Made by a program: the position numbers and the translations under genes. Source: Promethearchaeota archaeon (lineage in GTDB: Archaea; Asgardarchaeota; Lokiarchaeia; Sigyniarchaeales; SOKP01). Taken from it: DNA of 52,838 bases. Under the pieces are notes generated by a model that searched no databases, was not told the origin of the DNA, and saw only the letters and a program-made list of their open reading frames with translations. The stretch lies in the NCBI GenBank assembly GCA_019058365.1, contig JAHPZE010000030.1, forward strand, positions 1 to 52,838. The letters run 5' to 3'. Shown here piece after piece: positions 8,500-13,327 of the stretch. Within the stretch, counting starts at the first letter, position 1, and each line of letters starts with the position of its first letter.

Positions 8500-8585
8500 C
8501 ATTTAAATATAAGAAATACTAATTAAAATGTAAATACCTTTAAATAAAATTAATAGAATTTAATAAAAAATTAGTGGAGGAATAA
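8500..8585 (+). promoter_or_regulatory. Candidate TATA box (TTTAAATA) and GGAGG Shine-Dalgarno upstream of the histone gene
   Basis: catttaaatataag near 8500; gtggagg at about 8574-8580, 8 nt before the ATG. Confidence 0.5.
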
Positions 8586-8588
8586 AAA

Positions 8589-8795
8589 ATGGCTGCATTT
8601 GCATGGAGTCCACTACGGGCTCTAATGAAGAAAGCTGGAGCTGAAATCGTAAGTCGAGCCGCAGTTGATAAATTAATGGATTATTTAGAAGAATATGCAA
8701 AAACCTTAACTGGCTGTGCGCTTGATATTGCCAAACACTCCGGCAGAAAGAAAGTTACTGCTGCAGATATGAAAATCGCTATCGGTTTAATTTAA
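8589..8795 (+). CDS. Archaeal histone (HMf-like, tail-less)
   Basis: 68-aa histone fold: KKAGAEIVS...AKHSGRKKVTAADM. Confidence 0.92.
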   Translation: MAAFAWSPLRALMKKAGAEIVSRAAVDKLMDYLEEYAKTLTGCALDIAKHSGRKKVTAADMKIAIGLI

Positions 8796-8813
8796 GCCGT
8801 TAATTGCGATTTC
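8771..8813 (+). other. RNA stem-loop spanning the histone stop codon
   Basis: Outer stem AAATCGC(8773-79)/GCGATTT(8806-12); inner stem CGGTTTA(8783-89)/TAAGCCG(8793-99); compensatory changes in the repeat copy at 12571-12616. Confidence 0.7.
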
Positions 8814-8827
8814 AATATTTCAAGCAA

Positions 8828-8845
8828 TTTTTTTATTTTTTTTTT
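8828..8845 (+). terminator. Oligo-T terminator candidate after the histone gene
   Basis: tttttttattttttttt run about 30 nt after the stop. Confidence 0.55.
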
Positions 8846-8965
8846 AATTACTTTAAACCTGAATCTTTACTTTTACTATTTATATGAATGTATACTGTTA
8901 GTTTTATATATTAGTTTAACAGAATAAATTCATATGGTATTTTTTAAACAAGGTGAAAATTAAAG

Positions 8966-9082
8966 TTGTTCTTAGACAAATTTAAAGAATCTCCTAAGGA
9001 TAAACTTGTTATATTAATAACGATAATTGGTTTAGCAATAGTTTTATTGACTTAAATACTAATATTCATACCTATTGAAGCT
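8966..9082 (+). pseudogene. Truncated copy of the 185-aa membrane protein gene at 12770
   Basis: MFLDKFKESPKDKLVILITIIGLAIVLLT* ; TAA at 9053-9055 where the intact copy has TAC; homology stops at 9082. Confidence 0.9.
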
Positions 9083-9123
9083 TCAATTCTATTGATGCAA
9101 GTAATCTTGTCGTCTTTTTTGGT

Positions 9124-10545
9124 TTATTGATTGATAAATGGAGGTTTGAATCCTTCTGGAAATGGTGAGATATAAGGATTATCTTTAATTTTTTCTTCAA
9201 ATTCGCGTTTTGCCTTATTAATTATTTCAGGATTGTTCATAAATTCTATAGCGGATAACGCTAATATTTTCGCTGCAGTTAGCATTCCTTTATGACCTAT
9301 ACTCATACCAGACGTGCATACATTTTGCCAAGAATGTCCTGGAGACCCCATAATTTGACAAGTTGTAGCAATTTCACCTAAAGGTGTAACTCTTGAGACA
9401 TCAGAGACATCTGAAGAACCTGGCACAATTTTTCCTTTTCCAATTCCGGGAAGTATCATCCGATTTAATGGTTGTTCAAGAATTTGCTTAGCCATATCAC
9501 GTAAATTAGGAGGAATAAAGCGAGAAAAGGCTTCCATTGAACCGGGTGGCAAAGTTTTTTTGAGTTTTTCTGCAAATTCCCGATCTTCTTTATTAAACCT
9601 AGGGGCCCCCACCAATCTCATTTTAGAAAGAAGAACATTCCCAATTACATCATTATGTAAAGGATTATACATTCCCCCTAAAAAATTTATTACCATTTTA
9701 GTTTCTGTCATCAATGCTGCCCCTTCAGCTATTTTAATAACACGTTTATAAAGTTCCTCCACTGAAGAACGCTCAGGAGCTCTAATAAAGTAATATACTT
9801 CAGCTTTATCTGGAACAACATTAGGTGCCTCTCCACCATTTGTAATTACATAATGGATCCTAGCATCAGGAATAATGTGTTCTCTCAAATAATTCACTCC
9901 TACATTCATTAATTCTACAGCATCTAATGCACTTCGTCCATTCTGTGGATCAAAAGCAGCATGAGCAGTACGACCAAGAAATCTGAATTTTACAGAATTA
10001 ATCGCTAATAATGAAACATCATTTATTGCATTCATAAAAGCAGGATGCCATGATAAAGTAATATCGACATCTTTAAATGCCCCTGCATTAATCATATAGC
10101 CCTTACTATTGAATTTTTCCTCAGCAGGGCAACCGTAATATCTTATTGTACCATTAGCATCTCCTGAAAGAATAGCTTCTTTGACCGCAAGAACAGCTCC
10201 TAGTGCCCCTGTACCTAATAAATTGTGTCCACAGCCATGACCTGATGCTCCTTCTTTTAGAGGTCTTTTTATTGGTTCACTAATTTGACTTAAACCGGGT
10301 AATGCGTCATATTCACCTAATATAGCAATTACAGGTTTATTATTACCATAACTAGCATAAAATGCTGTTGGTATGCCTGCAACATTTTTTTCAACGAAAA
10401 ATTCAGCCTTCTCTAATGTTTCTGCTAATAGAGTTGATGATTTATACTCTTCAAAGCCAACTTCTGCAAATTCCCATATTTTATCACTAATTTCAATTAA
10501 TTCTTGCTGATTTTCATTAATCCAATTAGCATATTTTTTTGACAA
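9124..10545 (-). CDS. M20 amidohydrolase, AbgB-like (p-aminobenzoyl-glutamate hydrolase B family)
   Basis: LGEYDALPG, GHGCGHNLLG, GCPAEE, WHP, GSSDVSDVS, PGHSWQ. Confidence 0.88.
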   Translation of the reverse strand: MSKKYANWINENQQELIEISDKIWEFAEVGFEEYKSSTLLAETLEKAEFFVEKNVAGIPTAFYASYGNNKPVIAILGEYDALPGLSQISEPIKRPLKEGASGHGCGHNLLGTGALGAVLAVKEAILSGDANGTIRYYGCPAEEKFNSKGYMINAGAFKDVDITLSWHPAFMNAINDVSLLAINSVKFRFLGRTAHAAFDPQNGRSALDAVELMNVGVNYLREHIIPDARIHYVITNGGEAPNVVPDKAEVYYFIRAPERSSVEELYKRVIKIAEGAALMTETKMVINFLGGMYNPLHNDVIGNVLLSKMRLVGAPRFNKEDREFAEKLKKTLPPGSMEAFSRFIPPNLRDMAKQILEQPLNRMILPGIGKGKIVPGSSDVSDVSRVTPLGEIATTCQIMGSPGHSWQNVCTSGMSIGHKGMLTAAKILALSAIEFMNNPEIINKAKREFEEKIKDNPYISPFPEGFKPPFINQ

Positions 10546-10632
10546 ACTTATTCCCTTTTTTTAATAGGTGCGTTTCCAATAATATAAATAATTAAAAAAA
10601 ATATATATGTTTTATATTATAATTAAATTTTA

Positions 10633-11946
10633 CTATTGTTTCTTAGTTTTATGCTCATATATTTTTGAATCGAGTGTCAAAAACGCTATTATGCCTACAT
10701 TTGAAAGAATTGCCATAAATATAAAAACAACAGAATAAATAAGATATGTATCTGAAGTAATTTCTGACATTAATTCAAATATTATTCCAGTGAGAGTCAA
10801 TCCTAACATCGTCCCAAAATTAACAAATGAAGCACTTAGAGCAAAATAAGAACTCCGAACCTCATGATATTCTCTTGCATATCCACTAGCAATAGCACCA
10901 AAACTCGAGTGACTCCAACCACTCGCAGATCCTACTATGATTACAAAAATTAATAATATTACTACAGAAACAGGAATTAGTAATAAAAGTAAAGAACCTG
11001 TTATAAGAACTAGTGACAAATAATAAGCAAATCTTCTTGATTTTAAATCTGCAACATAACCTCCGAGAAGAGCACCTAATATTATTCCTCCTCCTACTAT
11101 TGATGATATAAAAGCTATTGGGTAATATAAATTAATTTCTGTTTCCGTCATTTCAAGAGTAGCACCTTCAGCCGCAATTATACCTGCACGGATCAAAATG
11201 TAAAGAGAAATAACTGAAAAAATGACTCCATCAATAATCGCAGTAAAAAAAGAAAAAATGAATAGTTTCCAGTTTTTACCTTTGCTGATTATTAATTTAA
11301 GATTACTGAAGTAATTTACTTTTCTTGGTTCTTCAATATCTTTAATATAAAGAATAAATATCGCAAAAACTATAGTTAAGATTCCTAACATAATAAATAT
11401 TAAATCTAATGGCATTATATACATAAAAAGTAAAATTGCCGGACCACCAAGCACAATTCCTACAGATCTAAATCCCCATGTTGCCCCTTGAATACGACCT
11501 AATTGATTTTTAGGAGTAATATCGAGAATAAACCCATCTATCACAGTATCTGACATAGCAATTCCGAACATAGAAAAGAAACCCACTAAAATAATAATTG
11601 CAATAACTGCACTAGGATTTGCACTAACTAGAATAGGTAAAAACATCACAACTAATCCACTAAAAAATAATGCTCCAAGAATCCACGGTTTTCTTCTTCC
11701 TAGTTTTTTAATACCATACTTATCACTTAAAGCACCAAAAATTATTTTAATTATGAAGGGGATCATAATTATTGATCCTAAGAAGGCAATAGTAGAAGCT
11801 TCTATCGAACCTAGTATTTCAAGTAAATAAATTGGTATAATAACCATAAACATACTTTGGGTTATTCCTTGTATTAAATAAAGCAGCGAGAAAATTAGAA
11901 TATAAATATTTTTAAAGTGATATTCCTTTTCTTCCAAAATATCCAC
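10633..11946 (-). CDS. MFS transporter (AmpG/acetyl-CoA transporter-like)
   Basis: 12 TM helices; LYLIQG, SDKYG...GRRKPWI, DTVIDG. Confidence 0.8.
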   Translation of the reverse strand: MDILEEKEYHFKNIYILIFSLLYLIQGITQSMFMVIIPIYLLEILGSIEASTIAFLGSIIMIPFIIKIIFGALSDKYGIKKLGRRKPWILGALFFSGLVVMFLPILVSANPSAVIAIIILVGFFSMFGIAMSDTVIDGFILDITPKNQLGRIQGATWGFRSVGIVLGGPAILLFMYIMPLDLIFIMLGILTIVFAIFILYIKDIEEPRKVNYFSNLKLIISKGKNWKLFIFSFFTAIIDGVIFSVISLYILIRAGIIAAEGATLEMTETEINLYYPIAFISSIVGGGIILGALLGGYVADLKSRRFAYYLSLVLITGSLLLLLIPVSVVILLIFVIIVGSASGWSHSSFGAIASGYAREYHEVRSSYFALSASFVNFGTMLGLTLTGIIFELMSEITSDTYLIYSVVFIFMAILSNVGIIAFLTLDSKIYEHKTKKQ

Positions 11947-12084
11947 CCAGATATATTAAATACATCTTTTAAATAGTTATTTAAATCTCATTTTTAGTTG
12001 ATTAGTAAATATTTAGGTTATTTATATTAATAAAGATTTAGGTTATTTATTTATTAAAACGCAGAGTTTGAAGTAAGAGAGAGA

Positions 12085-12483
12085 ATGATAAGACACATAA
12101 TCGAAAATTTGAAGTTAGAAATGCCCAGATTTTATAATGATGATGCAATTCAAGAGATTCTTAAAGAAGAATCTAGCTTACGTAATGAATTATATTCAAT
12201 AATAAGCTCTATTTTAAAATATTTTGCTACTTTCGACAATCGTAATTTCGCTAAAATGCTTTTAGAATATTTAAGATTTTATAATATGTTAAGAAGTTTT
12301 GCTATTCTACCTCACATTAAAAATCAAAAAGATTATGAGAGATCATTCACATATCCACCTTTAAGTATTGAAGACTTGAAAATTGCTGAGGTAATAAAAT
12401 TACTTCCGTTAAAGTTAAGTACGTTTGAGAAAAAATTAAAGAATAGAGTGAAAATTCTAAAAGACACCGATTCCAACTTTTGA
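12085..12483 (+). CDS. Hypothetical protein, possibly a truncated or degenerate PIN-domain protein
   Basis: C-terminal LSIEDLKIAE...LSTFEKKL resembles the PIN LSxxD...LxTxDxxL pattern; the N-terminal acidic strand is not evident. Confidence 0.4.
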   Translation: MIRHIIENLKLEMPRFYNDDAIQEILKEESSLRNELYSIISSILKYFATFDNRNFAKMLLEYLRFYNMLRSFAILPHIKNQKDYERSFTYPPLSIEDLKIAEVIKLLPLKLSTFEKKLKNRVKILKDTDSNF

Positions 12484-12553
12484 ATCCTTTCTTACTTATT
12501 GCTAGAATGATAATTAGAATTATCAGTCACTTTTAATTTTCCTTCTTTTTTAG

Positions 12554-12595
12554 ATTGTCAAACACATTCTGAAAATCGCTATTGATTTAGTGTAA
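12554..12595 (+). pseudogene. Remnant of the 3' end of a histone gene
   Basis: attgtcaaacac matches histone attgccaaacac; CTG AAA ATC GCT ATT GAT TTA GTG TAA (LKIAIDLV*) matches MKIAIGLI*. Confidence 0.75.
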
Positions 12596-12886
12596 ATCAT
12601 AAATTTTTTCGATTTCAATATTTCCAGCAATTTTTTTATTTTTTTTTTAAATTACTTTAAACCTGAATCTTTACCTTTACTATTTTTATGAATGTGTGCT
12701 GTTAGTTTTATATATTAGTTTAACAGAATAAATTCATATGATATTTTTTAAACAAGGTGAAAATTAAAGTTGTTCTTAGATAAATTTAAAGAATCTCCTA
12801 AAGATAGACTTATTATTTTATTAACAATAATCGGTTTAGCAATAGTTTTATTAACCTACATACTAATATTCATGCCTATTGAGGCT
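12571..12886 (+). repeat. Direct repeat copy 2
   Basis: Aligns with 8771-9082. Confidence 0.95.
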
Positions 12887-13327
12887 GCTGTTCCAACTTA
12901 TGGAATTCTAGATTATGAATTTGCCTGGACTTCTGATAGAGTGGAATTAATCCTCTCAGTATGGGGTTCAGATGGAATAGTTAGACAGACGTTTGCAATA
13001 TATTGGGATTTTTTGTATATTGTTGGATATGTTTCTTTAGCTCTTGGATTAATTTTGCTTGTATTAAGGAGATCAGAAGGAAAAATTCAAACTCTTGGTC
13101 TTTATTTTACCCTAGCACCTTTTCTGACAGGGATTTTTGATATAATCGAGAATATTAATTTACTTATAATGCTTGGGACTCCTACAGCCATTTTAACTAT
13201 AAATCCACTTATTGCATCAATTAGTGCGTTAATAAAGTTCAGTTTCTTATTTGCATCGATATTTTATTTTGTAACAGCAATGATTATCCTAGCTATAAAT
13301 AGAATTCAGAAGCGTGAGAATAAATAA
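12770..13327 (+). CDS. Hypothetical 4-TM membrane protein
   Basis: TTG start with AAGGTGA Shine-Dalgarno; hydrophobic helices; FDIIEN motif. Confidence 0.8.
   Translation: MFLDKFKESPKDRLIILLTIIGLAIVLLTYILIFMPIEAAVPTYGILDYEFAWTSDRVELILSVWGSDGIVRQTFAIYWDFLYIVGYVSLALGLILLVLRRSEGKIQTLGLYFTLAPFLTGIFDIIENINLLIMLGTPTAILTINPLIASISALIKFSFLFASIFYFVTAMIILAINRIQKRENK

Follow-up and report, generated by a model that had tools for sequence, protein, structure and literature searches.

The analysis of a 52,838-nt stretch of DNA from an Asgard archaeon of the Lokiarchaeia (the window) and of orthologous gene ends supports a selected RNA fold that overlies the stop codon of a histone gene and has a U-run next to it. 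It had been claimed in a first-pass annotation that a structure across this stop codon is under selection; the fold is indeed stable compared with chance, and compensatory changes are found in orthologues. It is proposed, with a probability of roughly 0.6, that the fold is a gene-specific 3'-end hairpin that serves transcription termination, protection of the mRNA from 3' decay, or both. Since the structure is selected and gene-specific, a 3'-end or post-transcriptional role would be its natural reading, in agreement with what the annotation had suggested for the histone mRNA.

A hairpin that is kept by compensatory evolution on one gene, and that is not generic, implies that some archaeal mRNAs carry gene-specific 3' structure. 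As the gene is a histone gene in an Asgard archaeon, it becomes testable whether histone-specific control of mRNA 3' ends existed before eukaryotes; the evidence argues against homology with the eukaryotic element. Moreover, the element provides a concrete, mutable test case for the effects of hairpins on archaeal termination and on exosome-mediated decay.

Layout, stability and specificity of the fold

The 68-aa product of the histone gene matches PF00808 with an E-value of 2.9e-10, which exceeds the curated cut-off of Pfam. The 5' strand of the stem consists of the last 12 codons, and the structure reaches approx. 31 nt past the stop codon (Table 1). The stem is composed of three AU-rich helices, H1, H2, and H3, which are set apart by 2x2 internal loops and together comprise approx. 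17-18 pairs; with the apical hairpin H0 the total comes to approx. 24 pairs. The inner hairpin at 8783-8799, the outer stem and the U-run, all of which had been pointed out in the first-pass annotation, were found in place, and the T7/T10 runs are located at +33 past the stop. In particular, the 43 nt at 8771-8813 have a minimum free energy (MFE) of -13.4 kcal/mol and a z-score of -3.76, and none of 200 dinucleotide shuffles equals this energy. The 81-nt context of the hairpin folds at -16.9 kcal/mol (z -2.82), and the segment from -36 to +48 around the histone stop, which includes H1-H3 and H0, has an MFE of -23.1 kcal/mol.

Table 1. Positions of the histone gene, of the parts of its 3' fold and of the related remnant, numbered from the first letter of the window.
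Feature	Position	Strand	Description and basis
Histone CDS, 68-aa archaeal histone	8589-8795	+	stop TAA 8793-8795; ORF list, Pfam PF00808
H3 5' strand TGCT	8759-8762	+	within codons Thr57-Ala58; partner 8823-8826; MFE fold, RNAalifold
H2 5' strand AGATAT	8765-8770	+	codons Ala59-Asp60-Met61; partner 8815-8820; MFE fold, RNAalifold
H1 5' strand AAATCGC	8773-8779	+	codons Lys62-Ile63-Ala64; partner 8806-8812; covarying core
H0 apical hairpin CGGTTTA-att-TAAGCCG	8783-8799	+	stop codon in 3' arm; sequence and fold
H1 3' strand GCGATTT	8806-8812	+	locatable via GCNATT, independent of the tested base
H2 3' strand ATATTT	8815-8820	+	MFE fold, own-clade alignment, RNAalifold
H3 3' strand AGCA	8823-8826	+	MFE fold, own-clade alignment, RNAalifold
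U-tract T7-A-T10	8828-8845	+	T-runs 8828-8834 and 8836-8845; begins 2 nt past stem base 8826
Remnant of histone 3' end	12571-12616	+	AAATCG/CGATTT and TGATTTA-gtg-TAAATCA (12583-12599); without H2/H3 5' strands; T-runs 12631-12648

The specificity of the fold was assessed over the whole 4.74-Mb genome (29.5% G+C), in which 4106 ORFs were called; 4078 of them had enough flanking sequence and were folded at -36 to +48 around the stop. As a control, each CDS end was joined to the downstream region of another gene, and the energy distributions of real and chimeric ends coincide (mean -8.07, sd 3.42, vs. -8.20). By energy, the histone gene ranks third of 4078, and the two ends ahead of it, with 0 and 4 spanning pairs, have no fold across the stop. 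No other ORF end reaches that energy with at least 24 stop-spanning pairs, a combination found in none of the chimeric controls, and no such fold is present at the genome's other five histone paralogues (ranks 869-3772 of 4078). In the extreme tail of the distribution (MFE <= -18, at least 12 spanning pairs), 18 real ends stand against 8 controls; the tail genes that were examined are unrelated and include those for an aspartokinase, an M29 peptidase and a PUA protein, among others. Hairpins past most genes, which the annotation had named as an observation that would speak against its proposal, were therefore not seen over the 4078 ORF ends, and the element is not generic. Runs of T7 or longer are themselves generic past ORFs, being present at 19% of ORF ends vs. 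2% inside CDS, and the window shows no clear excess of hairpins resembling terminators (10, compared with 5.7 +/- 2.8 after shuffling). A genome-wide RNAduplex screen of CDS ends against downstream sequence was dominated by pairings of A-runs with U-runs and gave an equally heavy control tail; it was replaced by the windowed MFE together with the count of stop-spanning pairs. Behind the count of 18 real ends vs. 8 controls at this strictest threshold, a handful of unrelated genes on G000 contigs have near-perfect hairpins around their stop codon, for example at C45:17409-18824 (-), C14:13707-14969 (+), C16:106850-107344 (-), and C34:223223-223441 (+), where the genes are those of an aspartokinase, an M29 peptidase, an acetone carboxylase gamma-like protein and a small ORF; one such hairpin reads TTGAAGGTC-caaatTAA-GACCTTCAA.

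Conservation and covariation among orthologues

Histone 3' ends were collected from the genomes of the genus and family, which yielded 132 loci with 79 distinct sequences at a protein identity of at least 85%. The orthologues belong to four genera (g1, g12, g13, and g14) of family f1 and are 85-100% identical. At least six stop-spanning pairs between the last approx. 12 codons and the sequence past the stop are predicted in 78 of the 79, and three arrangements can be distinguished. In the clade of the window's gene (the own clade), 13-30 nt separate the stop from the 3' strand, and the inner hairpin is located in between; in other clades it begins right at the stop codon; and in still others the register is shifted, with pairings such as CTATCGGC/GTCGATAG, CAATCAA/TTGATTG, and AGCAATTG/CAATTGCT. 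The median MFE of the 79 orthologues is -15.1, and 45 of them fall under the 5th percentile of the genome-wide background and 26 under the 1st. Compared with shuffled downstream sequence, the median z-score is -2.3, with values below -2 in 48 of the 79 and above 0 in six. The orthologues of genus g12 show no such fold and occupy background percentiles 12-83. Of ten related histone genes from other families of the order, five show a 3' fold in the lowest approx. 5% of the background, which is that of the genome studied here and not their own; three of these five folds enclose the stop, and their sequences are unrelated. In 34 of 73 orthologues, no more than 5 nt separate the start of the U-tract from the base of the predicted stem, whereas in about half the tract is found 10-50 nt further on. 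At loci L032 and L035 (family f2), the closest histone homologues are arranged as tandem pairs 40-45 nt apart; the gene in the window is solitary.

The part of the structure that is widely conserved and covaries across the 79 gene ends is the outer stem, not the inner hairpin. The annotation had noted that the outer stem is kept but had treated it as secondary; its upkeep proved to go further than that, as the stem comprises approx. 17 pairs and covaries across the family. The 5' strand of H1 encodes Lys-Ile-Ala (AAA ATH GCN), so that only synonymous sites can vary, and the Ile codons ATC, ATT, and ATA are matched by G, A, and U in the 3' strand. In CM alignment A4 (77 matches), which was fitted to the structure and in which misplaced rows inflate the counts of unpaired cells, 85.8% of H1 cells pair vs. 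22-56% with slid partners. The covariation score of A4 is 0.159 vs. 0.104 +/- 0.006 in shuffled alignments, with none of 500 shuffles attaining it, and the pair at the Ile third position is CG in 36 rows, UA in 24, AU in three, and UG in one. Among the misplaced rows, L003, L009, and L039 have their 3' arm on AGCAATTTT and not on GCGATTT, and L010, L023, and L025 were placed on the inner repeat.

Because A4 is structure-fitted and contains such rows, the test was repeated without the tested base. In this non-circular version, the 3' strand was located via GCNATT and the free base N was read off; in 41 of 48 sequences, N is complementary to the third base of the Ile codon (C-G 27, T-A 11, A-T 2, T.G 1), and the preceding base follows the Ala third position (T-A 24, C-G 3, G-C 1). 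The anchor was used instead of a search for the longest ungapped complement, which was confused by ATGAAAAT/ATTTTTAT matches; a MAFFT alignment of mixed clades (A2), in which 3' arms were off by one column, was likewise unusable for pair counts. A tree was built from other columns, namely sequence upstream of the gene together with the 156 nt at the start of the CDS; on this tree, the Ile third position changes approx. 14 times, and three contrasts on well-supported branches agree. Approximately seven compensated switches can be made out by eye: L072 within a C-G clade, L070 vs. L012/L069, L110 vs. its sisters, L055 plus its relatives L020 and L054 in the own clade, L026/L059 (A-U), L155, and L060. 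Compensatory substitutions in independent lineages are thus found for H1, and for H0 within the own clade.

For H2, the Asp third position pairs as U-A in 25, U.G in six and C-G in six of 43 sequences (CM alignment A6, sense rows only). The CM seeded with the own clade (R2) also matched antisense sequence and put several of the distant sequences wrongly into T-rich DNA; the counts were therefore restricted to sense rows, and support for H3 beyond the seed clade is weak and was not relied upon. Within the own clade, 95.8% of H1-H3 cells pair (18 pairs) vs. 36-45% with slid partners, the pairs being invariant, and RNAalifold recovers H1-H3 as well as H0 from an unfitted MAFFT alignment of this clade (A5). 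Covariation falls mainly on one or two pairs, since most of the 5' strand is constrained by the protein sequence. Among the cells of the six internal pairs of H1, 22 are G.U and 14 are A.C, which only weakly marks the folded strand.

The first-pass annotation had laid its emphasis on the 7-bp inner hairpin and on compensation within it. This emphasis does not hold for the family, since all seven H0 pairs are present, at fixed positions, in only 10 of the 79 orthologues. Compensation stands within the own clade (16 distinct sequences), where 91% of H0 cells pair vs. 28-50% with slid partners, RNAalifold predicts H0, and the covariation score is 0.225 vs. 0.160 in shuffled alignments, a value attained by two of 500 shuffles in a measure that is inflated by relatedness. 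Two pairs show double changes there, with pair types that include CG/UA/UG and UA/UG/AU/CG, and several own-clade sequences can instead form TAAATCGT-n5-ACGATTTA from the same bases. Across the 79 orthologues compensation does not stand, as 191 of 316 cells are paired at the four informative H0 pairs vs. 186 +/- 4 with shuffled partners (272 of 2000 shuffles reach this value). Taken together, the own-clade support and the family-wide null result indicate that H0 is real but clade-restricted.

Possible roles and rival explanations

In the proposed mechanism, the last 12 codons and approx. 31 nt past the stop would fold into one interrupted hairpin, with U7-A-U10 following 2 nt later. The stem might promote the release of RNA polymerase at the U-tract, its geometry being that of a hairpin-plus-U intrinsic terminator, or it might block 3'-to-5' exonucleolytic decay, so that the histone mRNA would end at the base of the stem; both effects could apply. 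As the 5' strand is coding, the stem would form only when the last approx. 12 codons are free of ribosomes, and its effect is thus probably coupled to translation status. Contigs from sediment and wetland metatranscriptomes that are 88-95% identical to the histone CDS (8584-8786) indicate that relatives of the gene are present in RNA libraries; they cover only the CDS of these relatives, and one of them extends 31 nt beyond position 8786.

The arrangement resembles a bacterial intrinsic terminator in that the gene ends with a hairpin and, no more than 2 nt later, a long U-tract, and a stable stem-loop stands directly before the U-tract at the window's gene. In compact bacterial genomes, the 5' arm of a terminator can overlap the coding end, as it does here. 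However, the host is archaeal, and for archaeal RNA polymerase a U-tract is normally sufficient; moreover, the bacterial stem is GC-rich, uninterrupted and approx. 7-8 pairs long, whereas the present one is AU-rich, with approx. 17 pairs plus an apical hairpin and internal loops. In half of the orthologues the U-tract stands apart from the stem, hairpins of this type are no general feature of the genome, and a consensus terminator scan of the window did not list the histone site. Given the distance of 10-50 nt in about half of the orthologues, the conserved role cannot strictly be the bacterial mechanism of a hairpin adjacent to U, and the upkeep of the stem despite this distance favours a stabilising or processing role over termination of a strictly bacterial type. 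In chloroplasts and bacteria, inverted repeats at mRNA 3' ends serve processing and stability and do not function as terminators. By analogy, the stem-loop could stop 3'-to-5' exonucleases and define the mature end, and such a block would account for the upkeep of the stem in orthologues with a distant U-tract.

With T7 and T10, the gene also has at least five U residues shortly past the ORF, which is the form of archaeal U-tract terminators. In four archaeal species, Term-seq has revealed U-tracts as the terminators, for the most part with no hairpin, and U-tracts are also what lokiarchaeial aCPSF1 uses (PMC8716108). The histone gene hpyA1 of Pyrococcus furiosus contains a 5-bp palindrome inside the ORF, 6 nt before an oligo-T, which had no effect on termination in vitro, while hairpins raised termination efficiency in a Methanothermobacter in vitro system (PMC2253867). 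Like the present gene, hpyA1 is a histone gene with a palindrome near its end that precedes an oligo-T, and in both the U-tract is the generic archaeal signal. In contrast to the 5-bp stem of hpyA1, the fold described here has approx. 17-24 pairs, is the most stable stop-spanning fold of its genome and shows compensatory upkeep in approx. 79 orthologues. No paper on such an element in Asgard archaea was found in a literature search.

Translation-linked control is a rather unlikely alternative, in which the fold modulates termination or ribosome recycling or else reports translation status, with untranslated mRNA folding and then being terminated, degraded or protected differently. It would fit with the position of the stop inside the structure in every clade (in a stem arm, the closing pair or the loop), with the persistence of this enclosure while registers shift between clades, and with a 5' strand that is always coding and that ribosomes must melt. 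However, neither a ribosome-binding site nor the start of a downstream ORF is sequestered, the frame past the stop gives, by eye, only non-conserved sequence encoded by the U-run, and enclosure of the stop may merely reflect a very short 3' UTR. That the fold is gene-specific, is the strongest stop-spanning one in the genome and is missing from the paralogues would also suit an operator RNA for a specific protein, be it the histone itself in autoregulation or another RNA-binding protein, which would act like SLBP while being unrelated to it; within the own clade there is hardly any variation in the internal loops or in the 3'-strand sequence (GCGATTTTAATATTTCCAGC). Nevertheless, helix sequences and registers turn over across the family, which would be expected of a generic structural role rather than of a site read by a sequence-specific protein, and a search of the genome for SLBP, made without a positive control, gave no match, so that an operator is unlikely. 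It is distinctly unlikely that the fold has no selected function and represents an inverted repeat that was made and repaired by template switching at quasi-palindromes, by slippage between the AAATCG/CGATTT words or as a side effect of rearrangement of the locus. The arms do hold repeated words (AAATCG twice and CGATTT twice in several orthologues), the region is a duplication or rearrangement breakpoint in several genomes, and the structure is weak or lost in some lineages; on the other hand, the stem persists over four genera with its approx. seven compensated switches and three Watson-Crick states at one pair, its stability is extreme among the 4078 ORF ends, and the chimeric controls reveal no general tendency of this kind.

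The first-pass annotation had raised kinship with the 3' stem-loop of eukaryotic replication-dependent histone mRNAs. The analogy is limited to a stem-loop at the mRNA 3' end of an Asgard histone gene, gene-specific here and possibly setting the position or stability of that end, as with the Histone3/SLBP system. The comparison with the Rfam model that the annotation had called for gave no match to Histone3 (RF00032) in a cmscan of 8500-13000 at E<=10. The eukaryotic element has a 6-bp GGYYYU/ARRRCC stem, a 4-nt loop and ACCCA-like flanks, whereas H0 has seven pairs and a 3-nt loop; the former sits in the 3' UTR, whereas here the 5' arms are coding, the hairpin overlaps the CDS, and the stop lies inside the structure. 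In addition, the stems are AU-rich and change register between clades, the hairpin is clade-restricted, and the fold is not common to the histone genes of the organism, being missing from the five paralogues as well as from genus g12, and it turns over within a family. The SLBP RNA-binding domain (PF15247) has no match in the 100%-complete genome, in a search whose control genomes hold no positive either. Kinship is contradicted on every feature that could be tested, and true homology is extremely unlikely. It is also decidedly unlikely that the main histone mRNA of these Lokiarchaeia has in this fold an element dedicated to post-transcriptional control, read by a specific factor that couples 3'-end formation or half-life to the state of the cell, and analogous to the stem-loop/SLBP pair by convergence or as a distant precursor. 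If this were true, a functional analogue of that pair would exist in the archaeal lineage closest to eukaryotes.

Several further readings of the region were considered and set aside. A bulge-helix-bulge splicing motif does not fit by eye, as the loops are 2x2 and not 3-nt bulges 4 bp apart, and a K-turn would have tandem G.A pairs, none of which are seen by eye. Stop-codon readthrough would, by eye, yield only a non-conserved sequence encoded by the U-run, and reading GCGATTTTAATATTT as a BRE/TATA promoter would leave the covariation unexplained.

The second copy and rearrangement of the locus

The sequence at 12583-12599 that the annotation had described as a diverged second copy is present as given, together with the outer AAATCG/CGATTT, but it does not belong to a second histone gene. 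It is part of a segmental duplicate of approx. 325 nt, in which 8770-9095 and 12570-12895 are approx. 90% identical and which occurs only twice in the genome. The duplicate runs from the final approx. 25 nt of the histone CDS across the intergenic region into the first approx. 125 nt of a membrane-protein gene. The fold of copy 2 is weak (-6.0 kcal/mol, z -1.2 and -0.6), and copy 2 is a remnant of the histone 3' end rather than the independent functional copy that had been assumed. Another species of the genus (G021, locus L080) has an orthologous remnant with an identical upstream junction, which indicates that the duplication predates the split of the two species. In the L080 remnant the stop codon is gone and three of seven inner pairs are left (by eye), with AAAATCGC/GCGATTTT retained. 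The TGATTTA-gtg-TAAATCA of copy 2 is one G-to-A change from the TGGTTTA-gta-TAAATCA found at the intact gene of L019, L022, and L041. On the simplest reading of these sequences, copy 2 would keep the older state, and the active copy in the sub-clade of the window would have shifted to CGG...CCG via compensated changes.

The two direct repeat copies flank an insert of 3.5 kb that encodes an M20-type peptidase, a transporter-like membrane protein and a 132-aa ORF. The membrane-protein gene is represented in copy 1 by a dead 5' fragment, and the histone 3' remnant is in copy 2, a layout that would fit single-crossover integration of circular DNA. At L081 (G046, contig C57, approx. 361-458), the 3' half of the module (ACGATTTA...AGCGATTTTAATATTTCCAGCAATTTTTTT) is found with the downstream intergenic sequence and with no histone gene there; the region has served as a rearrangement breakpoint more than once. 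At L075 (G042), a second partial histone 3' end (GCAGCAGACATGAAAATCGCTATTAACTTAATAT...) lies at 117-172 on the minus strand, approx. 260 nt downstream of the intact gene, and is matched by the CM. At L074 (G069) and L182 (G164), approx. 30 nt of extra sequence before the last eight codons lead to an earlier TGA, and the shortened ORF has ATGAAAATTGCT...TAA with its stem just downstream; either the C-terminus is altered or the gene may be disrupted.
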